In this document: one piece after another, positions 1-11,342 of the stretch | Numbering within the stretch: the stretch's first letter is position 1 | Layout: every line of letters begins with the position of its first letter | IMG/VR virus record: IMGVR_UViG_2778261353_000007 | Coordinates: 1-11,342 of that record | DNA length: 11,342 nucleotides | Reading direction: 5' to 3' (one strand) | From: a virus | Taxonomy: Duplodnaviria; Heunggongvirae; Uroviricota; Caudoviricetes | Translations under genes and position numbers: made by a program | Notes under the pieces: generated by a model | The model's database searches: none | Told to the model about the DNA's origin: nothing | The model's input: only the letters and a program-made list of their open reading frames with translations

Positions 1-255
1 CTGCTTTTCCTTGATGCTATAGGGGTGCTGAGACCGATAACGCATTTTGTAAACCATCCCTGTGAGAGCGAATATTCCGATATCTGGTTATTAATTTATG
101 ATTCTTGTTTTATGTGATCGTGGTAGCGTTAATTCCGCTCATATATCATTGTAAAATATGGGTTTTATATGAACTATAATGCTTTCGTGATAATACGCTG
201 CGTGTATTAGGCGGAAAAAACTGATCTGGGGGATGTAGAAACTCAAGGAAGTAGC

Positions 256-261
256 TATAAT
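256..261 (+). promoter_or_regulatory. Candidate -10 hexamer (TATAAT) of the selC promoter
   Basis: Exact TATAAT about 31 nt upstream of the mature tRNA 5' end; no convincing -35 seen. Position-based inference only. Confidence 0.3.
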
Positions 262-292
262 GCGCCCCGCCTCCATGTAGCAATCGAGGCGC

Positions 293-387
293 GGAAGATC
301 GTCGTCTCCGGTGAGGCGGCTGGACTTCAAATCCAGTTGGGGCCGCCAGCGGTCCCGGGCAGGTTCGACTCCTGTGATCTTCCGCCA
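293..387 (+). tRNA. selC: tRNA-Sec (selenocysteine, anticodon UCA)
   Basis: 95-nt sequence GGAAGATCGTCGTCTCCGGTGAGGCGGCTGGACTTCAAATCCAGTTGGGGCCGCCAGCGGTCCCGGGCAGGTTCGACTCCTGTGATCTTCCGCCA matches the E. coli selC tRNA as I recall it: long variable arm, anticodon TCA at 327-329, encoded 3' CCA. The minus-strand ORFs overlapping it are spurious. Confidence 0.93.
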
Positions 388-549
388 AACCTCATCCAGC
401 CAGTTCCGAGACACTCCATAAAATCCTTTATATTCAATACGATGAATAATCAGCTTGTCCGTAATAGTCCGAGAGCATCTCCCTGAATCCGCGAAAAATA
501 TGTATAGTAATGTGTATAGATTTTTTATAAGTAGTATTCAGTTATACAC

Positions 550-1728
550 ATGGCTCTAACCGATATACAGATCAAACGAGCAAAACCACAAGACAAGCCA
601 TACACATTGAACGATGGACAAGGTCTGTCATTGCTTATCAATCCCGATGGCTCGAAAGGCTGGCGTTTCCGTTTCCGATTTGCAGGAAAAGCGCGGTTAA
701 TGTCATTTGGCAGCTACGATTTAGTAAGCCTCGCAGAAGCACGTGAGAAGCGTGATATCGCCCGTAAGCAGGTTGCTAATGGCATTGACCCGGTAGAGGA
801 ACGCAAAGCTTTAAGACTCGCCCAAAAGCTATCAACAGAAAATTCTTTCGAAGCAATATGTCGAGAATGGCATACCAACAAAGCTGACCGCTGGACTGTG
901 GCCTATCGAGAAGAAATTATTAAGACATTCGAGCAGGATGTCTTCCCGTTCATTGGTAAACGTCCTATCAGTGAAATCAAACCATTAGAACTGCTTGAAG
1001 TATTGCGACGAATAGAGAAACGAGGAGCACTAGAGAAGACCAGAAAAGTGCGCCAAAGATGCGGTGAGGTCTTTCGTTATGCAATCATAACTGGCCGAGC
1101 TGAATACAATCCAGCACCTGATTTAGCTATCGCTCTGGCCGTTCCTAAGCAAAAACACCACCCATTTTTATCTGCCGAAGAGTTGCCTTATTTTATTCAA
1201 GATCTTGAAGCGTATACCGGAAGCATCATCACTAAAAATGCGACAAAGATAGTCATGTTAACTGGCGTAAGAACTCAGGAAATGCGCTTTGCCACGTGGG
1301 ATGAAGTTGACCTTGAGAAAGGAATATGGGAGATTCCAGCTGAAAGGATGAAAATGCGCAGGCCTCATATTGTACCTCTATCTACTCAGGTGATTGCCCT
1401 TTTTAAACAGCTCAAGCCTATTAGCGGCCATTATCCCTACATTTTTATTGGAAGAAATAATCGTAGTAAACCGATCTCTAAAGAAAGTGTATCACAGGTT
1501 ATTGAATTACTAGGCTACAAAGGTCGCGCTACAGGTCACGGATTTAGACATACTATGTCAACCATTTTGCACGAAAAGGGATTTGACAGTGTATGGATTG
1601 AAATGCAATTAGCTCACTTAGATAAAAATACTATTCGAGGTACATATAACCATGCACAATATTTAGAGAAGAGAAAAGATATGATGCAATGGTATGCGGA
1701 CTTTTTATACAAATCATTGGAGCGGTAA
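550..1728 (+). CDS. int: Tyrosine site-specific recombinase, P4-type integrase
   Basis: 392-aa ORF directly downstream of a tRNA gene. N-terminus MALTDIQIKRAKPQDKPYTLNDGQGL is typical of P4-family integrase arm-binding domains. C-terminal catalytic signature is present: Arg in LTGVRTQE, HGFRHT box and Tyr in RGTYNHAQY. No obvious Shine-Dalgarno before the ATG. Confidence 0.9.
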   Translation: MALTDIQIKRAKPQDKPYTLNDGQGLSLLINPDGSKGWRFRFRFAGKARLMSFGSYDLVSLAEAREKRDIARKQVANGIDPVEERKALRLAQKLSTENSFEAICREWHTNKADRWTVAYREEIIKTFEQDVFPFIGKRPISEIKPLELLEVLRRIEKRGALEKTRKVRQRCGEVFRYAIITGRAEYNPAPDLAIALAVPKQKHHPFLSAEELPYFIQDLEAYTGSIITKNATKIVMLTGVRTQEMRFATWDEVDLEKGIWEIPAERMKMRRPHIVPLSTQVIALFKQLKPISGHYPYIFIGRNNRSKPISKESVSQVIELLGYKGRATGHGFRHTMSTILHEKGFDSVWIEMQLAHLDKNTIRGTYNHAQYLEKRKDMMQWYADFLYKSLER

Positions 1729-1737
1729 ACGCTCCAA
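1717..1737. terminator. Perfect 8-bp stem / 5-nt loop hairpin between convergent int and membrane-protein genes (possible bidirectional terminator)
   Basis: TTGGAGCG-GTAAA-CGCTCCAA spans the int stop codon; no clear U-tract on either strand, so terminator function is uncertain. Confidence 0.3.
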
Positions 1738-1744
1738 TACATAA

Positions 1745-2386
1745 TTAATATATGGATGCTATTACCATTAAGACTTTAAAGAAAAACATGACGACAATTA
1801 ACCAGATAATTAAATACCCCCAAATACTACTGATATGATAGTTAATTCTACCTTTTAGCATCCTCCAAAAGCTAAAATTTTCAGGCGTATGGGAAATATA
1901 ATATCTGCTCTTTACTATTTTATGATATTCATAATCAACAGGGCTATGGTTGAAAGTGCATGTTGATTTTATTTTTTCATACTCATCGCGAAGATTATCT
2001 ATATTTTTATAATCTTCTTCAGTCATTTCATTTTTTAAGCTATTTTTGAATAGAGAAAGTTTCCTTTCATACTCATTAAGTAACTCAGCATTTCTAAAGA
2101 GAGCTTCAGATTTAGCTCCTGATGCAACTCCCCACTCAATAAGACTAATTATAATTAATAGCATACTTAAGATAATAGAAAATGCGGTTATTAATATATT
2201 GAGTTTAGGATTTATATCATTAATCCAAAAATATTGCATTAATGATAATATAATACTGGAAAGGCCAATTAAAGCGAGACTAATAGTTGAAAAGATCTCT
2301 CTGACCTTTAATCGACGGGATGAATTATATCTTGCACACGATGTTTCCCATGCAGCTTTACTTAGGCTATCCAAAAAATCTTTCAT
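1745..2386 (-). CDS. Hypothetical membrane protein with three predicted TM segments; candidate effector partner of the adjacent reverse transcriptase
   Basis: ORF track gives 1745..2482 (245 aa). I prefer the internal start MKDFLDSL at 2386 (213 aa) because GGAG lies 6 nt upstream (2393-2396) and the longer N-terminus runs into the GC-rich spacer. Hydrophobic stretches IFSTISLALIGLSSIILSLMQYF, LNILITAFSIILSMLLIIISLI and C-terminal ISSIWGYLIIWLIVVMFFFKVLMVIASIY; charged, probably helical region between TM2 and TM3. AT-rich like the RT gene. No family recognised. Confidence 0.65.
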   Translation of the reverse strand: MKDFLDSLSKAAWETSCARYNSSRRLKVREIFSTISLALIGLSSIILSLMQYFWINDINPKLNILITAFSIILSMLLIIISLIEWGVASGAKSEALFRNAELLNEYERKLSLFKNSLKNEMTEEDYKNIDNLRDEYEKIKSTCTFNHSPVDYEYHKIVKSRYYISHTPENFSFWRMLKGRINYHISSIWGYLIIWLIVVMFFFKVLMVIASIY

Positions 2387-2580
2387 TATAAACTCCATGA
2401 ATAGTATAAAGTGACGCAACGCCGGAGATATCAGTCCAATCCTCTTCACCAGCAGTTTCCCCCGATGAAGGTTTACTACCATTTTAGGTCAGGAGCACTT
2501 CTGCCCATCACGGCATTTCCGCATGGGGTACGGCACCTGCAAGGCAAGTGCCGTCGGCGTTGGTCAAGCTCAATATATCA

Positions 2581-3990
2581 TTATTTAGGATATACTTCAC
2601 CTTCATCTGCATGCATGCTAGCTAGATTTTTAGCTTTATATCTCTCATAACGCTCTTCAACCTGTTCTTTAGTTAACCTCTCACCTTCAGCAATCCTTCC
2701 GCGCCGGTGCAAGAATTCAGTTTTTTGTTTAACAGTTTTAATCTGGTCGTAATCTCGTATATAACCTCTATGTGGGCTATATTTCATTTCATAATAAGCA
2801 CGTGTTACCTTTTTCAATCCTTCAGGTGCACAATTATCAAAATCATCCAAGCGTTTAAACATTTCTCTTATTATAAAATCTATTTTATGCAGAAGAGAGT
2901 GGTCGGTAATATTTGAATAATAAGCCACCCATCCATATCTTTTTTTCTCACTAATAGCCCCTGTTAACTTATCATTTAACTCTTCCAGAAAAACATCTTT
3001 AAGATCATCAACGGTTAAATGTGTATACTTCTTTAAACGTTTATTTTTATTGTGAAGATAGTCACTAAACCTAGATGCGATTGATTTTATAAATGATTCT
3101 ACAGTCGAATCTCGCACTGTTATAACATTTGCATTAAAAACATATCCCAAAAAGCTAAAAGACTCATTAAGAAAACCTAAACGTGTCTTAGATGATGTTG
3201 GCGGATGAGTGTTTAATCCCCTATATTTAAGCCTACGCCGTAGTGAATGATAAGCTGAATTTACCTCGTCATAATTTCCATAAATTAGCACATCATCAAC
3301 ATATCTATAGTAAGCTACATCAAACTTTAGCATTTTATCATCAACACTTTGCAGATAAATTGCAGCTAAAATATTAGATATTGACAACCCTTGAGGAACT
3401 CCCTTTTCATTATCAAAAAAAAACTTCCTCATTTTTTTATTAACACTATCACTTGTTGTTGGTGTTAAAAGAGAACGAACTATGAGGTCCAACGCTCTTT
3501 TACAATGCACTCTTTTTGATAGAATCTTTTTAAGTCGATGTTTGTTTATATTGTCATAGAAACCTTCAATATCACAACTACAAACATAAATATCTTCAGG
3601 GGGCATATCTTTTAAATCATCCGAGATATTTCTAATATAAGTTGAAGCAATACTCTTAGGTACACAATCAGGGAAAATCTCACAAAGAAAAACATTGAGC
3701 TGTTTTAATACAATGCGATCTCTAATTGTTGGTATAGAAATTACCCTAGGACTTTTTCCTCGCCCTTTACTTTTTAATTTTTCTAAGTAAGGAGTAAATC
3801 TAAATGAACCGTCAAGACATTTTTCCGAAACTTTCTTTAATTCCTTTCTGGCTCTACTTGAATATTGCATGCCATTGATTCTGTCAATGCCTTTTGCTGC
3901 CGACTTACTAAATTTATCAGAATACACATCAAATAAAGATTTTGGGGAGAAGAGTTTTTTAAATAACGTTTCTTGTGCTCGTTCATCCAT
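2581..3990 (-). CDS. Reverse transcriptase (RNA-directed DNA polymerase), unclassified, probably defence-associated
   Basis: 469-aa ORF with the RT motif series: AAKGIDRINGMQY (motif 0/1-like), RVISIPTIRDRIVLKQL (motif 2), CDIEGFYDNI (motif A, catalytic Asp), GVPQGLSISNILAAIYL (motif B'), YRYVDDVLIYG (motif C, YxDD), FLGYVF (primer grip). About 180-aa charged C-terminal extension. SD-like AAGGTG 5 nt before the ATG. Very AT-rich relative to the P4 backbone. Confidence 0.9.
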   Translation of the reverse strand: MDERAQETLFKKLFSPKSLFDVYSDKFSKSAAKGIDRINGMQYSSRARKELKKVSEKCLDGSFRFTPYLEKLKSKGRGKSPRVISIPTIRDRIVLKQLNVFLCEIFPDCVPKSIASTYIRNISDDLKDMPPEDIYVCSCDIEGFYDNINKHRLKKILSKRVHCKRALDLIVRSLLTPTTSDSVNKKMRKFFFDNEKGVPQGLSISNILAAIYLQSVDDKMLKFDVAYYRYVDDVLIYGNYDEVNSAYHSLRRRLKYRGLNTHPPTSSKTRLGFLNESFSFLGYVFNANVITVRDSTVESFIKSIASRFSDYLHNKNKRLKKYTHLTVDDLKDVFLEELNDKLTGAISEKKRYGWVAYYSNITDHSLLHKIDFIIREMFKRLDDFDNCAPEGLKKVTRAYYEMKYSPHRGYIRDYDQIKTVKQKTEFLHRRGRIAEGERLTKEQVEERYERYKAKNLASMHADEGEVYPK

Positions 3991-4129
3991 TGCATCACCT
4001 TATATTACGTCACGACTATTCCGTCTGACCACTTAATATCATGAATTCATTGCGTTCTTATAGCAAAATTTAATAAAAACTGCATTAACCTTCACTATTG
4101 ATTGGTCGCATTAAATTCTTATGCGCGCA

Positions 4130-4148
4130 GTGCTTTCCCCGCCTCGCC
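4130..4148 (-). other. cos site: 19-nt P2/P4 cohesive-end sequence
   Basis: Minus strand reads GGCGAGGCGGGGAAAGCAC, which matches the P2/P4 cohesive-end sequence as I recall it. It lies downstream of psu, as in P4, and is flanked by GC-rich hairpins (4147-4167 and 4197-4218). Confidence 0.55.
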
Positions 4149-4250
4149 CGCCCGCTTTGCGGGGCGGTTTTAATGCAGTTGCACTGACACGCTCAGACCG
4201 CGCCGGGAATGGCGCGGTTTGCAGAAAATGAGGCAGGAAAACGCATGCAA

Positions 4251-4282
4251 AGCCATGCACCTTATCGATGCATGGCTTTTTT
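4251..4282. terminator. Rho-independent terminator-like hairpin downstream of psu (possibly bidirectional)
   Basis: 9-bp stem AGCCATGCA / TGCATGGCT with a 9-nt loop, followed by a T-run on the plus strand; A-rich tract on the other side. Sits between the psu stop (4313) and cos. Confidence 0.45.
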
Positions 4283-4312
4283 CAGTAAAAACGGGCGGAT
4301 TTTCGGGGGGTT

Positions 4313-4885
4313 TTACACAGACTGATGTGATGCCAGTTGCGCACTTTTACGCGAAAAAATCATATTCTGCGCAGGAGTGAATTTTTCACGGCTGTCATCC
4401 ACCGAAGCCGCGTCAGGCCTGAATCCGATGGTCGTTAAAATGTCGCTATCCTGTGCGGAATAATTAATTTTTTCCCCCTTCGCAAGCCAGGACAGAAGGG
4501 CTTCACGCAGGGCATCTGTGGCACGCTGTATGGCACAGTTTCGGGCAATGGCCGTCAGCTCACTGTAGCCCATCAGCTCCGGTGCCAGTGCGGCCGCCAG
4601 TGCTGTGCCGTGCTGCTGCATAAAATCATTCAGCCGGTCGCGGATGCTGATGTGCTGAACGGCTTCATGCGAACGAATATAACGACCGGCAGCCTGATTC
4701 ACCTGCCATTTTCTGACTTCGATAATATTGCGTAATTCGTCCAGGCGACTGACGTTTCTGCCTTCCCCGGACAGAAGCCGCAGATATTCCTGTTCGGCCG
4801 CAGCCAGCTCATTTTTGCGTTGCAGCCATGCTGCTTTGTTATTCTGACAGGTGTCAAAGGCCTGCTGTAAGGCTGTGCTTTCCAT
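4313..4885 (-). CDS. psu: Polarity suppression protein Psu (capsid decoration / Rho antagonist)
   Basis: 190-aa ORF, the size I recall for P4 Psu; last gene of a minus-strand sid-delta-psu operon, followed by terminator and cos exactly as in P4. Confidence 0.88.
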   Translation of the reverse strand: MESTALQQAFDTCQNNKAAWLQRKNELAAAEQEYLRLLSGEGRNVSRLDELRNIIEVRKWQVNQAAGRYIRSHEAVQHISIRDRLNDFMQQHGTALAAALAPELMGYSELTAIARNCAIQRATDALREALLSWLAKGEKINYSAQDSDILTTIGFRPDAASVDDSREKFTPAQNMIFSRKSAQLASHQSV

Positions 4886-4958
4886 CGTTATCTCTTTCTC
4901 ATCATGCTGAAGAATAAAAATACGGTGTGCGGCGACGGCCGGGGTTAACCGGCAGCCC

Positions 4959-5459
4959 TCATTCCAGACGCAGCGAATATGATTGTGTTTTTAACCGTAC
5001 TGGCGGCAGTTCCTGTTTTTCATGCAGGCGTTCTGCCAGTTCGTCCGGCGTGACCGGGCGGACAATGAAGCGGTTGATGGTCTGAAGCGTTTTAAACACC
5101 AGACCACAGCCCGGATCCGTGCACACATAAAAACGTTCGGTGACTTCCTGAGACAGACGCCGCGATGTTCTTGACAGTGCAAGGCCGTTACATCTCCGAC
5201 AACAATATCCGGTAACAAGCATTCTTTTCGGGCGTTTCATACTGCCGGAGGCAGAAGTCAGTGAATCGCGGTATCTCTGTTTGCCTGAAATGTATTCCAT
5301 TCCTGAATCTTTACTGTCAGAGAAAAAGCTTTCACTCGCTTCAAATGTCGCAGAGCAATAAATATTCCGGCACTGTGCAATCATTATCTTGGTGCCATCG
5401 TCCATGAAATGTGCGCGACGAGTGTGAGCAACATGTCCACACGACGGGCAGTAAATCAT
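4959..5459 (-). CDS. delta: Late gene transcriptional activator Delta (tandem Ogr-type zinc finger)
   Basis: 166-aa ORF with two Cys-rich zinc-finger units (CPSCGH...CRNIYC and CCRRCNG...CTDPGCG), matching a duplicated Ogr-like fold. Start overlaps the sid stop (ATGA), indicating translational coupling. Confidence 0.88.
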   Translation of the reverse strand: MIYCPSCGHVAHTRRAHFMDDGTKIMIAQCRNIYCSATFEASESFFSDSKDSGMEYISGKQRYRDSLTSASGSMKRPKRMLVTGYCCRRCNGLALSRTSRRLSQEVTERFYVCTDPGCGLVFKTLQTINRFIVRPVTPDELAERLHEKQELPPVRLKTQSYSLRLE

Positions 5460-6190
5460 GACAGCAGTCCTCTGGCCTTAAGCTCTGCACCCTGCTGGTC
5501 TATTTTGTCCTGCCACACCTTGCGCTGTGCCGGTGTGCCTGCCACCTCATAATCCATGTGCGGGAGTGTTGCCGCTGACAGTCCGGTCAGCCGGAGAACC
5601 GGCTCGCCGGTGAGGCTGATTTGCATCTGTTTAATTTTCTGTTCCAGCGATGATTTCACCTGCTGCATGACAGCCTTTTCCGGTGCGACGTAGCCCTGAT
5701 GGCCGGTGGTGTTGGCGAGCGGATTTTCCTGTACCAGAATGCTCAGATGCATTGCCCGGACAAGCGCCTCACAGGTTTCATTCAGGGCGTGTTCCAGCTC
5801 ATGCTCTGCATACAGACTCAGAAGGTGATGATGTGCCTTCCGGTAGGCGGTGGCCGTGCTGTCACACGCCCCTTTCAGGCGTTCGCGTTCAAAATTCAGC
5901 ACCACGGCCAGATTGTCATATTCCTGTACCAGCTCCCGGCGTGCCACGCGCTCAATGTGGCGCTGTTTCAGCTCGTCGCTCAGGACACCACCGGCTGCAC
6001 GAAAGGCCGTGCGCCAGTCGTCAGCGTCGTTTCCGTCGGCCTGCGCCAGCGCATTTTTTTCCTGCTCTGCCCGTTCAATGGCCGTGACGGTCTCATCCAT
6101 CAGACGGGCGTTCTCAAGATGGGCGGCTCTGGCCTTTTCCAGTTGTGCCAGCGCGGATTGCAGATATTCAGGGATGGTGTTGTCAGACAT
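5456..6190 (-). CDS. sid: Capsid size determination protein Sid (external scaffold)
   Basis: 244-aa ORF, the size I recall for P4 Sid; first gene of the late operon; GAGGAG Shine-Dalgarno upstream of the ATG; helical, Ala/Glu/Leu-rich composition. Confidence 0.9.
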   Translation of the reverse strand: MSDNTIPEYLQSALAQLEKARAAHLENARLMDETVTAIERAEQEKNALAQADGNDADDWRTAFRAAGGVLSDELKQRHIERVARRELVQEYDNLAVVLNFERERLKGACDSTATAYRKAHHHLLSLYAEHELEHALNETCEALVRAMHLSILVQENPLANTTGHQGYVAPEKAVMQQVKSSLEQKIKQMQISLTGEPVLRLTGLSAATLPHMDYEVAGTPAQRKVWQDKIDQQGAELKARGLLS

Positions 6191-6261
6191 TTTCGGCTCC
6201 TCGTCACTTCAGGTTGAGAAAATTGTGACGTACACCGGACAACAACACGACGCATTGCAGA

Positions 6262-6279
6262 TGTGCCAGCCCTGACACA
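6262..6279 (-). promoter_or_regulatory. TGT-N12-ACA dyad, candidate Delta/Ogr activator site of the sid late promoter (Psid)
   Basis: TGTGCCAGCCCTGACACA lies 72-89 bp upstream of the sid ATG, consistent with an activator site centred near -55 of a P2/P4-type late promoter. A second TGT-N12-ACA at 6224-6241 lies closer to the gene. Confidence 0.4.
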
Positions 6280-6358
6280 GGAGACTCATCCTCACACCGG
6301 CAAGCCAGGAAAAGGTCGCAGGAAAAACCGGCTTACTGTTTGTTTTTTTATATTTTAC

Positions 6359-6462
6359 TGTTCACCTCTGTTCACCATAAGAAAAAAGATAAGTAATACA
6401 GTAAGTTAAATGGTGAACAATCGCAGTAATGACTGTTCACCGTCTGTTCACCACTGTTCACC
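6359..6462. repeat. Iteron cluster: six copies of octamer TGTTCACC (five direct, one inverted), ori-like alpha-binding sites
   Basis: Octamers at 6359, 6369, 6434, 6445, 6455 (plus strand) and 6412-6419 (GGTGAACA, inverted). TGTTCACC is the alpha-protein binding iteron of P4 ori/crr as I recall; it lies about 4.8 kb from a second cluster after alpha. Confidence 0.6.
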
Positions 6463-6566
6463 CGTTGATGGGCTTTTTGTGCTGTTTATTACTGTTTGTT
6501 TTTATTAATTCGCCGGGAATGAATAAGAAAAAACGATTTGTATTTCACTATAAAAATTACGAATTG

Positions 6567-6596
6567 CTTTAAGTGGCTTTAAATGACTTTAAGTGG
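6567..6596. repeat. Three tandem 10-bp repeats CTTTAAGTGG / CTTTAAATGA / CTTTAAGTGG
   Basis: Direct tandem repeats with 10-bp (one helical turn) periodicity in the control region upstream of vis; possible protein-binding array. Confidence 0.35.
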
Positions 6597-6621
6597 AGAT
6601 GAACAAAAAACACACAAGCAT

Positions 6622-6639
6622 TGTAAGGCTGCCGGAACA
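6622..6639 (+). promoter_or_regulatory. TGT-N12-ACA dyad, candidate Delta/Ogr site of the rightward late promoter (PLL-like) driving vis
   Basis: TGTAAGGCTGCCGGAACA lies about 100-120 bp upstream of the vis ATG; same dyad class as the Psid site, in divergent orientation. Confidence 0.3.
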
Positions 6640-6741
6640 AATCCCCCCTGTTGCGTCTGCTGAAAATATTCACAAAATAAAGCGCTACCCGAAGCCGGAC
6701 GGACTTATCCGGTGCTGTATGGACATTAACGAGGTAGCCCG

Positions 6742-7008
6742 ATGCAAGCTGTTTTTTCTTCCCCGTCTCCCGCCCCTGTGACGCCACTGATGCCGCTGCC
6801 GGACATCACGCAGGAGCGTTTTTTACGTCTGCCGGAAGTGATGCACCTGTGCGGCCTGTCACGCTCGACCATCTATGAACTCATCCGTAAGGGGGAATTT
6901 CCGCCGCAGGTGAGTCTTGGCGGTAAAAATGTGGCCTGGCTGCACTCTGAAGTCACCGCATGGATGGCCGGCCGCATTGCCGGACGCAAACGGGGGTATG
7001 ACGCATGA
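6742..7008 (+). CDS. vis: AlpA/Vis-family small DNA-binding regulator (excisionase-like)
   Basis: 88-aa ORF with the AlpA-type helix-turn-helix core [27 protein letters not shown] and a conserved Trp-containing tail; GAGGT Shine-Dalgarno 7 nt upstream. Same size and position as P4 orf88/vis as I recall. Confidence 0.75.
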
Positions 7009-7604
7009 TGATGCCCGCTCTGCAAAAAGTCCCTTTTTCTGGCTTGCCTTTTTCCGGCATTTGCGGATATAGTTTTTCCGCTGTCGCAAAATCGGCAGCC
7101 GGGCGTGGAAACCCGAGCAATCTAACGGCGACATATGACGCGCCATGCGTCTTTTTTTGTGTCGCAATCAACGCCACAGAGCGCCAGATTATGGTGTGGT
7201 GTGTGGTCAGTCGAGCAGATGGCACTCCGTGCATCCTGCCCGCGTCCGCTCATTATGCCGCAGAGTCAATGGTAGCTCAGGCGGGGCAGCCTCCGGGCTG
7301 GCCGGTATCCGTTAGAGCCGGTATTTCCACCCCCGTCTGGGCTATCGCCATCGAGCGTGGAAACTCCGGCGATAGCGTAACCTGCTATCTAACGGAGGCT
7401 GCCATCATGGCTACAACCCTTACCCCTTCACACCCTGAATTTGTCTTTGTGTTTGCGGCTGTCCGTCGCGCAGACCGTCATCCCCGTATCTGCATGCTTC
7501 GCACCGTCGCCGGTGATGAACGCAGTGCCCGCCGTTCCCTTGTCCGTGACTATGTGCTCTCCCTTGCTGCCCGTCTGCCGGTGGTGGAGGTGTCCCGTGC
7601 GTAA
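7005..7604 (+). CDS. Questionable 199-codon ORF overlapping the early promoter and immunity RNA region
   Basis: ATG overlaps the vis stop (ATGA), but the frame runs straight through seqA, the candidate CI RNA and seqC, and has Ala/Arg/Pro-rich low-complexity composition. Possibly only an N-terminal kil-like portion is real, or none of it. Confidence 0.2.
7044..7073 (+). promoter_or_regulatory. Candidate early promoter (PLE-like): TTGCCT, 18-bp spacer, TATAGT
   Basis: -35-like hexamer at 7044-7049 and -10-like hexamer at 7068-7073, about 30 bp upstream of seqA. Match by eye only. Confidence 0.3.
7103..7129 (+). promoter_or_regulatory. seqA-like target of the immunity RNA
   Basis: GCGTGGAAACCCGAGCAATCTAACGGC; its ends (GTGGAAA ... 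ATCTAACGG) are complementary to CCGTTAGA ... TTTCCAC at 7309-7330. A near-repeat lies at 7355-7397. Confidence 0.4.
7271..7346 (+). ncRNA. Candidate CI-like immunity RNA containing seqB
   Basis: Contains seqB-like CCGTTAGAGCCGGTATTTCCAC (7309-7330), complementary to seqA and seqC. GGTAGC (7271-7276) can pair with GCTATC (7341-7346) as a closing helix, with internal hairpin CAGCC-TCCG-GGCTG. Boundaries approximate. Confidence 0.35.
7355..7397 (+). promoter_or_regulatory. seqC-like second target of the immunity RNA
   Basis: GCGTGGAAACTCCGGCGATAGCGTAACCTGCTATCTAACGGAG repeats the seqA end motifs (GTGGAAAC ... ATCTAACGG) downstream of seqB. Confidence 0.4.
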
Positions 7605-7884
7605 TAAAAAAGCCCCTCAGACCGTCTCAGCGCGTCATGACGCCCGTGAACACCTCAGCATTGAGGCTTACCATAAGCTCAACCGCGCCAGCGCCGTATC
7701 CCAGTTTGTTGGGGGTGATTTGATTCACCGTGAACTCTCCGGCCTGCATCAGCTCTACATTCCGCATATTTTCAGCTACCTGAATGAAGATATTGATTTT
7801 GTGCTGAATGAACTGAAAGCCAAAGGCCTGTGCCGCGATTTTCTCGCCCAGCAGAAAGACCGGGGAGACAGGACGCATGTTTGA
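7597..7884 (+). CDS. Small protein (95 aa), possible epsilon-like antirepressor
   Basis: In-frame GTG at 7597 is preceded by GGAGG at 6 nt; the ORF-track ATG at 7441 would lie inside the immunity RNA region. Stop overlaps the next start (ATGTTTGA). The epsilon assignment is by position and size only. Confidence 0.45.
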
Positions 7885-8332
7885 TTTTCCCCAGCCCGGT
7901 GAGATTTACCGTTCTGCCGGTTTTCCCGATGTGGCCGTGGTCGGCATTCTGGAAGACGGTATTCCGTGGGAAATGCCGTACCGCTGCCCGGACATTGTCT
8001 GGAACCCGTACCGCCGTAAATTCAGTATCCTTGTGCGTATCCTCGCTGACGGGCGCACCACAGACATCCCGCTGGGGCGTTTTCTGCGGGAATTTACCTG
8101 TGACCGTCCTGACCTGTTTAAACGCAGCCCCGTAAACCGGCATGCGGTACTGAAAGAAATGGCCGGAGACCCGGAATTACAGAAATGGCGGGAGAAATAT
8201 CTGGATATTTACCCGCAGGCCCCTGTTCCGGTCAGCCGGGCGACACCGGTGGCGCGGGAATGGCGGGAAATCCCCCGCACGGAGCCTGACCCGGAAATCA
8301 CACCGGATAACAGTTACCGCAATTATCTGTAA
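7877..8332 (+). CDS. Hypothetical protein, 151 aa (P4 orf151-like)
   Basis: ORF translationally coupled to the preceding gene, same strand as alpha, backbone-like GC content. Function unknown. Confidence 0.6.
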   Translation: MFDFPQPGEIYRSAGFPDVAVVGILEDGIPWEMPYRCPDIVWNPYRRKFSILVRILADGRTTDIPLGRFLREFTCDRPDLFKRSPVNRHAVLKEMAGDPELQKWREKYLDIYPQAPVPVSRATPVAREWREIPRTEPDPEITPDNSYRNYL

Positions 8333-8467
8333 TTAAAAAACGACACCCGAAAAATTAAATGTGCGTATTCGCGCAGGGATACGCACGTCTTCAGGAGACG
8401 CAGATATGCCTTATCAGTTAATGCAACCGGCACGGAATGCAGTCATCTGTCACAGGGAGGAAAGCAA

Positions 8468-8788
8468 ATGAAAACACCCTTACCGCCCGTCTTACGCGCA
8501 GCCCTTTACCGTCGTGCTGTCGCCTGTGCCTGGCTGACCGTGTGCGAACGTCAGCACCGCTACCCGCATCTCACCCTTGAATCACTGGAGGCGGCCATCG
8601 CCGCTGAGCTGGAAGGCTTTTATCTGCGCCAGCACGGTGAGGAAAAAGGGCGTCAGATAGCCTGTGCCCTGCTGGAAGATTTAATGGAATCCGGCCCCCT
8701 GAAGGCCGCGCCGTCGCTGTCCTTTCTCGGGCTGGTTGTGATGGATGAACTCTGTGCCCGTCACATAAAAGCGCCGGTACTGCACTGA
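8468..8788 (+). CDS. Hypothetical protein, 106 aa (P4 orf106-like)
   Basis: Strong GGGAGG Shine-Dalgarno upstream of the ATG; sits immediately upstream of alpha. Function unknown. Confidence 0.6.
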
Positions 8789-8802
8789 AGGAGAACAACA
8801 CC

Positions 8803-11145
8803 ATGAAAATGAACGTAACCGCCACCGTCAGCCATGCGCTCGGCCACTGGCCGCGTATTCTCCCGGCGCTGGGGATTCAGGTGCTGAAAAACCGTCATCA
8901 GCCCTGTCCGGTCTGTGGCGGGAGTGACCGCTTCCGTTTTGATGACAGGGAGGGGCGCGGCACCTGGTACTGCAATCAGTGTGGTGCCGGTGACGGCCTG
9001 AAACTGGTTGAAAAGGTGTTTGGTGTTTCCCCGTCCGATGCGGCCGCAAAGGTGGCTGCCGTGACCGGCAGCCTGCCCCCGGCTGACCCGGCAGTGACGG
9101 CTGCCGCCGGTGCTGAAACAGACGCTGCCCGGAAGAACGCAGCCGCACTGGCACAAACCCTGATGGCGAAAACCCGTCCCGGAACCGGTAACGCCTACCT
9201 GACCCGCAAGGGCTTTCCCGACCGGGAATGCCGGATGCTGACCGGCACACACAGAGCCGGTGGCGTGAGCTGGCGCGCCGGTGACCTTGTGGTGCCACTG
9301 TATGACGACAGCGGCGAACTGGTTAACCTTCAGTTAATCAGTGCTGACGGCCGTAAGCGCACCCTGAAAGGCGGACAGGTCAGGGGCACCTGTCACACCC
9401 TTGAAGGACAGAATCAGGCCGGAAAACGTCTGTGGATAGCGGAGGGATACGCGACCGCACTTACCGTGCATCACCTGACCGGTGAAACGGTGATGGTGGC
9501 GCTTTCTTCCGTGAACCTCCTTTCTCTGGCCAGCCTTGCCCGGCAGAAGCATCCGGCCTGTCAGATTGTCCTTGCCGCAGACCGTGACCTCAGCGGTGAC
9601 GGCCAGAAAAAAGCCGCCGCAGCCGCAGATGCGTGTGAAGGTGTTGTTGCCCTGCCGCCGGTCTTCGGTGACTGGAATGATGCCTTCACGCAGTACGGCG
9701 GGGAAGCCACCCGTAAGGCCATTTATGATGCCATCCGGCCACCGACTGAAAGCCCGTTCGACACCATGAGCGAAGCGGAGTTTTCCGCCATGAGTACCAG
9801 CGAAAAGGCCATGCGTATCTATGAGCATTACGGCGAGGCGCTCGCGGTCGATGCCAACGGCCAGCTTCTGTCCCGCTATGAAAATGGTGTCTGGAAGGTG
9901 CTGCCGCCACAGGACTTTGCCCGGGATGTGGCCGGGCTGTTTCAGCGTCTGCGCGCGCCGTTCTCCTCCGGGAAGGTGGCCTCCGTGGTGGACACCCTGA
10001 AGCTGATTATTCCGCAGCAGGAAGCCCCCTCCCGCCGCCTGATTGGCTTTCGTAACGGCGTGCTCGACACGCAGAACGGCACGTTCCACCCGCACAGTCC
10101 GTCACACTGGATGCGCACCCTGTGCGATGTGGATTTCACCCCGCCGGTGGAAGGGGAAACGCTGGAAAACCACGCCCCCGCGTTCTGGCGCTGGCTTGAC
10201 CGTGCCGCCGGTGGCCGTGCGGAAAAACGCGACGTGATTCTGGCCGCACTGTTTATGGTGCTGGCAAACCGCTACGACTGGCAGCTCTTTCTGGAGGTGA
10301 CCGGTCCCGGCGGCAGCGGCAAAAGTATCATGGCCGAAATCGCCACCCTGCTGGCCGGGGAGGATAACGCCACGTCGGCCACCATCGAGACGCTGGAATC
10401 CCCGCGTGAACGTGCCGCGTTAACTGGCTTCTCACTGATACGCCTGCCGGACCAGGAAAAATGGAGCGGCGACGGTGCCGGACTCAAGGCCATCACTGGC
10501 GGCGATGCGGTGTCCGTGGACCCGAAATACCGGGATGCGTACTCCACGCATATCCCGGCGGTGATTCTGGCCGTGAACAATAACCCGATGCGCTTCACCG
10601 ACCGCAGCGGCGGCGTGTCACGCCGGCGGGTGATTATTCACTTCCCGGAACAGATAGCCCCGCAGGAGCGCGACCCGCAGCTTAAGGACAAAATCACCCG
10701 CGAGCTGGCGGTCATTGTGCGTCACCTGATGCAGAAGTTCAGCGACCCGATGCTCGCCCGGTCACTGCTTCAGTCCCAGCAGAACTCAGACGAGGCACTG
10801 AACATCAAACGGGATGCCGACCCGACGTTTGATTTTATCGGCTATCTGGAAACCCTGCCGCAGACCAGCGGCATGTATATGGGGAACGCCAGTATCATCC
10901 CGCGTAATTACCGTAAATACCTCTATCACGCCTATCTGGCCTACATGGAGGCAAACGGCTACCGGAATGTACTCAGTCTGAAAATGTTCGGGCTGGGGCT
11001 GCCGGTGATGCTGAAGGAATACGGACTGAATTACGAGAAGCGCCATACCAAACAGGGGATACAGACCAACCTGACGCTGAAAGAGGAAAGCTACGGCGAC
11101 TGGCTGCCAAAATGTGACGACCCTGCGACAACCCGACCCTCATGA
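8803..11145 (+). CDS. alpha: Replication protein alpha: primase (zinc finger + TOPRIM) fused to helicase, with C-terminal origin-binding region
   Basis: 780-aa ORF. N-terminal zinc motif CPVCGGSDRFRFDD...YCNQCG; TOPRIM-like region around WIAEGYATALTV and AADRDLSGDGQKKA; Walker A GPGGSGKS. AGGAG Shine-Dalgarno upstream. Size and architecture match P4 alpha. Confidence 0.92.
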   Translation: MKMNVTATVSHALGHWPRILPALGIQVLKNRHQPCPVCGGSDRFRFDDREGRGTWYCNQCGAGDGLKLVEKVFGVSPSDAAAKVAAVTGSLPPADPAVTAAAGAETDAARKNAAALAQTLMAKTRPGTGNAYLTRKGFPDRECRMLTGTHRAGGVSWRAGDLVVPLYDDSGELVNLQLISADGRKRTLKGGQVRGTCHTLEGQNQAGKRLWIAEGYATALTVHHLTGETVMVALSSVNLLSLASLARQKHPACQIVLAADRDLSGDGQKKAAAAADACEGVVALPPVFGDWNDAFTQYGGEATRKAIYDAIRPPTESPFDTMSEAEFSAMSTSEKAMRIYEHYGEALAVDANGQLLSRYENGVWKVLPPQDFARDVAGLFQRLRAPFSSGKVASVVDTLKLIIPQQEAPSRRLIGFRNGVLDTQNGTFHPHSPSHWMRTLCDVDFTPPVEGETLENHAPAFWRWLDRAAGGRAEKRDVILAALFMVLANRYDWQLFLEVTGPGGSGKSIMAEIATLLAGEDNATSATIETLESPRERAALTGFSLIRLPDQEKWSGDGAGLKAITGGDAVSVDPKYRDAYSTHIPAVILAVNNNPMRFTDRSGGVSRRRVIIHFPEQIAPQERDPQLKDKITRELAVIVRHLMQKFSDPMLARSLLQSQQNSDEALNIKRDADPTFDFIGYLETLPQTSGMYMGNASIIPRNYRKYLYHAYLAYMEANGYRNVLSLKMFGLGLPVMLKEYGLNYEKRHTKQGIQTNLTLKEESYGDWLPKCDDPATTRPS

Positions 11146-11152
11146 CTCACCT

Positions 11153-11176
11153 GACCGGCATCTGCCGGTCTTTTTT
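11153..11176 (+). terminator. Rho-independent terminator of alpha
   Basis: GACCGG-CATCTG-CCGGTC hairpin immediately followed by TTTTTT, 8 nt after the alpha stop codon. Confidence 0.7.
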
Positions 11177-11194
11177 ATCCCTGAAATCCCCGAA

Positions 11195-11285
11195 GGTGAA
11201 CAATCCACTGTTCACCCTTCACCGTATATTCACCCGTTATCACACTGAAATTAAAAGAGAAAAACGAAAGGTGAACAGTGTGAAC
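11195..11285. repeat. Second iteron cluster (crr-like, cis replication region), probably truncated by the window end
   Basis: GGTGAACA at 11195 and 11270, TGTTCACC at 11209, and degenerate copies (CTTCACC, ATTCACC, GTGAACA) immediately downstream of alpha. Confidence 0.5.
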
Positions 11286-11342
11286 AATCAAATCAAAAAA
11301 AACTTTTTTTTCTCCCTGTGTGATTTCAGTACGGGGGATTAA

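Follow-up and report, generated by a model that had tools for sequence, protein, structure and literature searches.

The defense system closest to the one considered here is the reverse transcriptase (RT)-SLATT locus of Escherichia coli H120. The P4 hotspot was found through the neighborhood of this locus, between psu and int and next to cos, and the RT-SLATT system was shown to make SbcB essential in H120 (Rousset et al., 2022; PMC9122126). The H120 locus was later classed as UG17-B/DRT10 (Sanchez-Nieto et al., 2026; bioRxiv 10.64898/2026.04.29.721553). DRT10 systems are tripartite and consist of an RT, a SLATT protein and a non-coding RNA (ncRNA) encoded upstream of SLATT (Tang et al.; PMC12632851); in UG17-B, the RT gene comes first and a spacer of ~200 bp precedes SLATT (bioRxiv 10.64898/2026.04.29.721553). 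Rapid swapping of cargo between elements with identical core genes has also been described (Moura de Sousa et al., 2026; PMC13586616). Here, we analyzed a stretch of 11,342 nucleotides (nt), positions 1 to 11,342 of the IMG/VR virus record IMGVR_UViG_2778261353_000007 (hereafter, the window), in which a first-pass annotation had pointed out an AT-rich block at 1745-4129 that includes the genes of an RT and a membrane protein. The RT protein is 100% identical to WP_000344414.1, an accession that Table S1 of Tang et al. (PMC12632851) assigns to E. coli H120 as its UG17 locus. The locus is thus already known: the P4 defense hotspot was published with it as the founding case, and later work characterized the RT family as DRT10. 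Our analysis indicates that the AT-rich block is very probably the DRT10 cargo of this known hotspot, and that the contrast in GC content is a standing property of a circulating pool of cargos and integrases and not the fresh scar of a low-GC donor.

The window covers the left two-thirds of a satellite prophage of the P4 type that is inserted at selC, as established by the tRNA-Sec gene, the Pfam and Rfam content, the identity to P4 and the cos end. Pfam matches were obtained for the tyrosine integrase, Psu, Ogr/Delta, AlpA, Ash and the primase-helicase, and the core of a P4-like satellite is present (int, psu, delta, sid, alpA, ash/cI, alpha and cos). Positions 4149-11342 are 97.9% identical to phage P4 (X51522/NC_001609); the orientation is reversed relative to P4, with 4149 corresponding to the final base of the linear P4 genome. 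The cos sequence GGCGAGGCGGGGAAAGCAC was exact in 7/7 E. coli P4-like loci checked, and P2 phages matched the window at 4119-4195. The yicJ-selC context of the window recurs in locus L001, and an alignment to E. coli VG12A2 revealed only five mismatches over 11.3 kb.

Per-region counts and a 300-nt sliding profile gave a GC content of 0.333 for positions 1745-4129 and of 0.557 for positions 4313-11342, and synonymous codon use differed markedly between cargo and backbone (chi2 = 468, df 41, p = 8e-74). These data, together with the values for GC and GC at third codon positions (GC3) of the individual genes (Table 1), bear out the first-pass estimate by eye that the RT and membrane-protein genes are AT-rich, that psu, delta, sid and alpha are GC-rich, and that int is intermediate. 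The codon use of int could not be distinguished from that of the cargo (p = 0.10), unlike that of the backbone (p = 1e-30). In a binomial likelihood change-point scan, no GC break anywhere in the window was stronger than that at 4122, which had a log-likelihood ratio (LLR) of 183; shuffling of 50-nt blocks, repeated 500 times, gave a mean LLR of 8.8 and a maximum of 35.9. The sole change-point on the left side, at 1429 (LLR 24), fell inside the block-shuffle range, and GC drops gradually within int to reach 0.35 in its final 300 nt. Of the two sharp edges that had been claimed, the right one therefore stands, 8 nt from cos, whereas no sharp step occurs at the int stop (1728). The AT-richness of the cassette likewise holds overall (33.3% GC) but is not uniform, since the spacer between the RT and SLATT genes contains a GC-rich island at 2483-2580 (0.55).

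The right limit of the variable segment was defined by aligning seven P4-like elements that differ in cargo. Their sequences are unrelated through 4124 and invariant from 4125, so that only 5 nt lie between the junction and the cohesive end of cos (4130-4148). On the left, homology with other selC P4-like elements stops at ~1700-1706, approximately eight codons before the int stop; the selC-type integrases of these other elements are 81-92% identical to that of the window (four aligned loci) and differ in the last ~8 codons. Eight cargos were found at the same two junctions (4124/4125 and ~1700), namely DRT10, an AIPR gene, a NACHT gene, two P-loop NTPases, an AAA ATPase, a pair of hypothetical genes, and gop-beta-cII. 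The cos-proximal edge (200 nt) was matched in 2249 of 5426 complete E. coli genomes, vs only 5 of 5426 for the cassette. The comparison with related elements, in combination with the 97.9% identity of the backbone to P4, agrees with the earlier suggestion of a swappable cassette and supports the AT-rich block as exchangeable cargo in a conserved satellite chassis. Cargo exchange would occur by recombination in the conserved flanks, one formed by cos/psu and the second by int. Transposition was considered as an insertion mechanism and rejected, because a search for transposon-like direct or inverted repeats in the flanks yielded nothing beyond chance pairs of short length and low identity; no insertion sequence elements were found. 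A terminator-like hairpin over the int stop (1715-1739) falls within the segment that varies between elements, and for this reason each cargo seems to carry its own int C-terminus and terminator.

The first-pass annotation had attributed the contrast to recent acquisition from a low-GC donor; on this view, the cassette would not yet have ameliorated toward the GC content of its host, and the 22-point GC gap and the very different synonymous codon use are in keeping with that proposal. However, every cargo sampled at the slot proved to be equally AT-rich (8/8, GC 0.295-0.359 vs 0.52-0.57 in the backbones), including the gop-beta-cII cargo of P4 itself (0.359 vs 0.561), and in every element sampled, int itself has fallen to 0.32-0.41 GC by its 3' end. 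Since all eight cargos are low in GC, this feature belongs to the slot and not to the DRT10 cassette. Homologous loci (80 in total) were collected by a profile search of genome contigs using a 23-sequence RT alignment; a search of the contigs with the single RT protein gave no match, unlike the alignment. In 26/26 UG17-B loci, from other genera of Beta- and Gammaproteobacteria, the GC content of the RT gene is below that of its flanks (mean difference -13.5 points, Wilcoxon p = 3e-8), and it tracks host GC loosely (r = 0.49). The nearest relatives with a name all belong to the Enterobacterales (Mixta, Lelliottia, Rosenbergiella and Serratia), with no low-GC taxon among them. Lelliottia sp. AC1 and Mixta each possess an RT-SLATT pair that is 66-67% identical and occupies the psu-int interval of a P4-like satellite; the Lelliottia satellite has a cos-like site upstream and, next to int, yicJ/yicI-like genes as at selC. 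Both cassettes have a GC content of 0.32-0.35 and the same GC bump at the ncRNA. Between Lelliottia and the window, identity is 66% for RT, 68% for SLATT, 62% for psu and 57% for sid. Given that the cargo has diverged to an extent similar to psu and sid while GC is still 0.32-0.35, both the association with P4-like satellites and the low GC are old. The rarity of the cassette among complete E. coli genomes (5/5426) and the 99.8-99.9% identity of its copies in unrelated strains would also fit a recent arrival from a donor, but the cassette matched no plasmid or phage record searched: the plasmid search (at blastn sensitivity) gave no match, and matches in the phage collection were limited to the backbone, the cos region and the E. 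coli flank. On this evidence, we consider a recent gain from a low-GC donor improbable.

A second explanation for the low GC content is constraint at the protein level, as might apply to a hydrophobic membrane protein and an RT rich in Lys, Asn and Ile. The amino acid composition does differ in the expected direction, with FYMINK residues making up 36% of the cargo proteins vs 20% of the backbone proteins, and GARP residues 17% vs 32%. The biggest shift, however, was observed at synonymous third positions (GC3 of 0.22-0.29 vs 0.47-0.71), and the chi2 for synonymous codons was 468. Moreover, orthologous RTs reach a GC3 of 0.6-0.8 in high-GC hosts, demonstrating that the RT tolerates GC-rich coding. 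The GC3 gap refutes protein constraint as the main cause, an explanation to which we assign very little credence, and the amino acid shift is more likely a consequence of nucleotide bias.

The event that does look recent is the spread of the cassette within E. coli. The carrier loci are L001 and L096-L099. In the four carriers other than the near-identical VG12A2, int and the cargo were each 99.8-99.9% identical to the window, and delta-sid, ori-immunity and alpha were 97.2-99.0% identical (97.2-98.8% in the three intact elements). The backbones of the carriers are no closer to the window than that of the ST2747 element, which has an AIPR gene at the same site, and for int, the elements at selC that lack the cassette reach only 81-92% identity. 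Judging from these identities, int and cargo appear to move as one block in E. coli and to recombine into diverged backbones. We would put forward only tentatively, as the less probable view, that the AT-rich left arm composed of int and cargo may evolve apart from the P4 backbone and that its ~30-36% GC may be actively maintained, for instance through H-NS-type silencing or through a need in the recombination that exchanges cargo; in its favor, int shares the codon usage of the cargo, and the low GC persists over 34% protein divergence. Among the carriers, L097 (E. coli 1008S13, 11585-13193) has lost the region from mid-psu to mid-alpha and kept int and the DRT10 cassette; its RT has a different protein accession, and the element looks like a decayed satellite retaining its defense cargo. 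In L098 (E. coli 2015C-4136CT1), SLATT is annotated as shorter (9082-9657), possibly owing to a frameshift near the 3' end, and the LEE type III secretion genes espF and escG are found just past the satellite (19822-20583). Because these LEE genes lie directly beyond the satellite, two elements appear to be arranged in tandem at selC.

The cargo is a complete tripartite DRT10 (UG17-B) system, judged from its coding and RNA components in the order RT-ncRNA-SLATT. The RT matched PADLOC RT_UG17 at 4.4e-140 over residues 6-466, and its YVDD active site is intact and invariant among 23 homologs. Also invariant among these homologs is Tyr467, two residues from the C-terminus, which could be the residue used for priming, in analogy to Tyr444 in Eco1DRT10. 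The RT stop at 2581 and the SLATT start at 2386 are separated by a spacer of 194 nt, with RT first, which matches the UG17-B order. The longest open reading frame for SLATT (245 aa, ATG at 2482) reaches into the ncRNA, and the Pfam match begins at its residue 33. SLATT homologs are 212-216 aa in length, the RefSeq/PGAP start is 2386 (L001), and GGAG is located 6 nt before this ATG; the true start is, from these features, almost certainly the ATG at 2386 and not that at 2482. Hydrophobic segments were observed at residues 30-55, 60-91 and 183-213. The sole protein-changing difference in the cargo between the window and VG12A2 is at SLATT residue 106 (window 2071), which is Tyr in the window and Asp in VG12A2. 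Outside the carrier group, locus L091 (6001-8248) contains a 70% identical RT-ncRNA-SLATT cassette beside RhuM, SymE-toxin and fimbrial usher genes; no psu or cos is present upstream, and the contig stops just past SLATT. On account of this copy, the cassette may also occur outside P4-like satellites.

The GC-rich island in the spacer was found to coincide with a structured RNA. Folding of the spacer gave a minimum free energy of -72.4 kcal/mol (z = -4.3 vs shuffles), and mean column identity of the ncRNA was 81-85% among relatives whose RTs are only 66-82% identical. A covariance model built from six enterobacterial copies also matched at full length in 18 additional loci of Beta- and Gammaproteobacteria, immediately behind the RT stop; in total, 26 loci gave a match, which invariably followed the RT stop closely on its 3' side. 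Compensatory changes were present in 29/50 pairs, and 92.7% of cells were paired vs 44-50% with the partners slid, although these pairing counts are inflated by the fitting of the alignment to the model. None of 500 shuffles reached the observed covariation values. The fold, the model matches and the covariation therefore identify the GC island as an ncRNA gene at 2412-2566 on the minus strand, and the published position of the ncRNA, upstream of SLATT, is the same as that seen here (PMC12632851; bioRxiv 10.64898/2026.04.29.721553).

Within the predicted template loop of this ncRNA, a GAU-N5-7-GAU arrangement is retained in 25/26 aligned loci with a spacing of 8 to 10, and a second candidate, CU-N5-CU, is also present. 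The candidate A-B-A' is GAU-UGGACU-GAU, in which A-B would run from 2441 to 2433 and A' from 2432 to 2430; the conservation of GAU favors GAUUGGACU as the template, with AGTCCAATC being the predicted complementary DNA (cDNA) repeat. An alternative template would be CU-GAUAU-CU with a 7-nt repeat. For Eco2DRT10, whose ncRNA family is most like the one in the window, Tang et al. give a 2-nt A/A' (PMC12632851), and in view of this length, the 3-nt GAU reading may be offset or wrong. Directly after the RT stop, the motif TGnTATnTT is conserved in six enterobacterial relatives (invariant columns T6, G7, T9, A10, T11, T13 and T14) and resembles an extended -10 element (TGATATATT). A sigma-70 scan did not call this motif and gave fewer sigma-70-like sites than shuffles; it is a candidate for an independent promoter of the ncRNA and SLATT.

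The position and fold of this RNA also bear on whether the RT could be that of a retron. The classic retronphage phiR73 with its retron Ec73, reportedly described by Sun and Inouye in 1991, is likewise a P4-like element at selC, so that the chassis and integration site would be as in the window. Retrons have in addition been reported in the P4 hotspot (Rousset et al., 2022; PMC9122126). Nevertheless, the top model for the RT was RT_UG17 (4e-140), none of the 25 PADLOC matches listed is a named retron model, and the RT is partnered by a SLATT_5 protein. The structured RNA is downstream and not upstream of the RT gene and has a DRT10-type fold, as in the 26 UG17-B loci, and an Rfam scan of the window gave no retron msr. 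The retron assignment was rejected on the basis of the PADLOC, Rfam and RNA position data, and we regard it as exceedingly improbable.

Work on homologs provides a model for how the DRT10 cargo may act. Tang et al. described protein-primed, processive synthesis of tandem-repeat DNA, in which an A-B template in the ncRNA loop is copied and synthesis is reset on a downstream A' (PMC12632851). Sanchez-Nieto et al. reported the same type of synthesis, with a 7-nt repeat, in a UG17-A system, showed that exonuclease I (SbcB) suppresses toxicity, and proposed that SLATT is activated by accumulated cDNA (bioRxiv 10.64898/2026.04.29.721553). In the system of the window, the RT would bind the structured ncRNA encoded directly downstream of its gene and self-prime, probably at the invariant C-terminal Tyr467. 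It would then repeatedly copy the short A-B template in the 3' loop and reset on A', resulting in tandem-repeat single-stranded DNA (ssDNA) with the predicted unit AGTCCAATC. Host exonuclease I (SbcB) would hold the ssDNA at a low level in uninfected cells; upon infection, ssDNA would accumulate and the SLATT membrane protein would kill or arrest the cell.

Several points weigh against our interpretation of the block as a DRT10 cargo with a long-standing low GC content, in addition to the inflated pairing counts and the 2-nt A/A' of Eco2DRT10 given above. The Lelliottia int protein is 91% identical to that of the window while RT is 66% identical, which indicates that int and cargo do not always have a common history. 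Mutational bias of mobile DNA, H-NS silencing or selection may underlie the lasting AT-richness. Finally, the mechanism, the defense activity, cDNA synthesis and the repeat unit at this locus are extrapolated from homologs.

As a discovery, the locus matters little, and the practical value of the analysis lies in a corrected annotation: the SLATT start is moved from 2482 to 2386, a 155-nt ncRNA gene is added at 2412-2566, and the cargo limits are set at ~1700 and 4124/4125. A GC drop at hotspots of this kind is not to be taken as a sign of a particular low-GC donor. The uniform cargo GC of 30-36%, the AT-rich 3' end of int and the linkage of int with cargo are small additions to the hotspot papers; a text search of Rousset et al. 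(2022) and Moura de Sousa et al. (2026) for "GC content" found no mention of the term.

Table 1. Coordinates and base composition of features in the 11,342-nt window.
Feature	Position	Strand	GC	GC3	Basis or remark
tRNA-Sec (selC), integration site, attL side	293-387	+			ARAGORN; Rfam RF01852, 83.8 bits
int, selC-type tyrosine integrase	550-1728	+	0.424	0.372	Pfam Arm-DNA-bind_3, Phage_int_M, Phage_integrase
Hairpin over int stop, terminator-like for SLATT transcript	1715-1739	-			Scan: 10-bp stem then ATTTGTATAA
SLATT_5 membrane effector, 213 aa	1745-2386	-	0.314	0.293	Pfam PF18160 6e-31; PADLOC RTasSLATT 1e-35
DRT10 ncRNA, 155 nt, basal stem enclosing several stem-loops	2412-2566	-			Fold, covariation, conserved position
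Predicted template loop GAGGAUUGGACUGAUAUCUCC (ncRNA 3' loop)	2424-2444	-			Inference from conservation and the mechanism in PMC12632851
Candidate ncRNA/SLATT promoter, extended -10-like TGATATATT	2572-2580	-			TGnTATnTT, 6-7 nt upstream of basal stem
UG17 (DRT10) reverse transcriptase, 469 aa, YVDD	2581-3990	-	0.327	0.223	PADLOC RT_UG17; Pfam RVT_1
AT-rich leader/promoter region of RT, end of variable segment	3991-4124	-			7-element alignment; GC break 4122
Conserved P4 backbone	4125-11342		0.56		97.9% identity to P4; Pfam; Rfam
cos cohesive end GGCGAGGCGGGGAAAGCAC, 19 nt	4130-4148	-			Bases 1-19 of P4 NC_001609
psu	4313-4885		0.527	0.550	Backbone gene
delta	4959-5459		0.489	0.473	Backbone gene
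sid	5456-6190		0.578	0.641	Backbone gene
ori	6333-6760				GC dip
alpA	6742-7008				Backbone gene
ash/cI region with C4 RNA	7265-7352				Position of C4 RNA
orf151; orf106					Backbone
alpha	8803-11145		0.610	0.712	Backbone gene
crr (start)					Backbone

Two further regions of low GC lie outside the cassette. The dip at 6333-6760 (0.376) within the backbone maps to the replication origin annotated for P4 and is unrelated to the cargo, and the terminal 170 nt of the window are also low in GC. In the ash/cI region, Rfam matches were obtained to the C4 immunity RNA and to an isrK-type sRNA (7067-7157 and 7265-7352), as expected for P4, and a match to the C4 a1/b1 target scored just below the gathering score.

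A comparison with phage P4 (NC_001609) revealed that its backbone is 97.9% identical to that of the window from cos to crr and that its cargo is also AT-rich; P4 differs in carrying the gop-beta-cII cargo, a 440-aa int and another attachment site, leuX. The P4 psu-int hotspot resembles the window in having variable cargo beside cos, in either orientation, and conserved flanks (PMC9122126; PMC13586616). With the H120 RT-SLATT locus (Rousset et al., 2021/2022), the window shares an identical RT, the SLATT partner and the position between psu/cos and int, and no substantive difference from it was noted. The experimentally described systems Eco1-3DRT10 (PMC12632851) and UG17-A of Escherichia sp. 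E3659 (bioRxiv 10.64898/2026.04.29.721553) have in common with the window an RT, an ncRNA and a SLATT_5 protein, the location of the ncRNA directly upstream of SLATT, and the YVDD motif. They also share the RNA plan, in which a basal stem encloses several stem-loops and a 3' template loop. In contrast to the overlapping SLATT-RT order of UG17-A (E3659), the window displays the RT-first UG17-B order with a spacer of ~194 nt. The sequence of its template loop differs from those of Eco1-3DRT10 and E3659, the repeat unit being a predicted one here, and the conserved C-terminal residue is Tyr467 in the window as opposed to Ser456 in Eco3.

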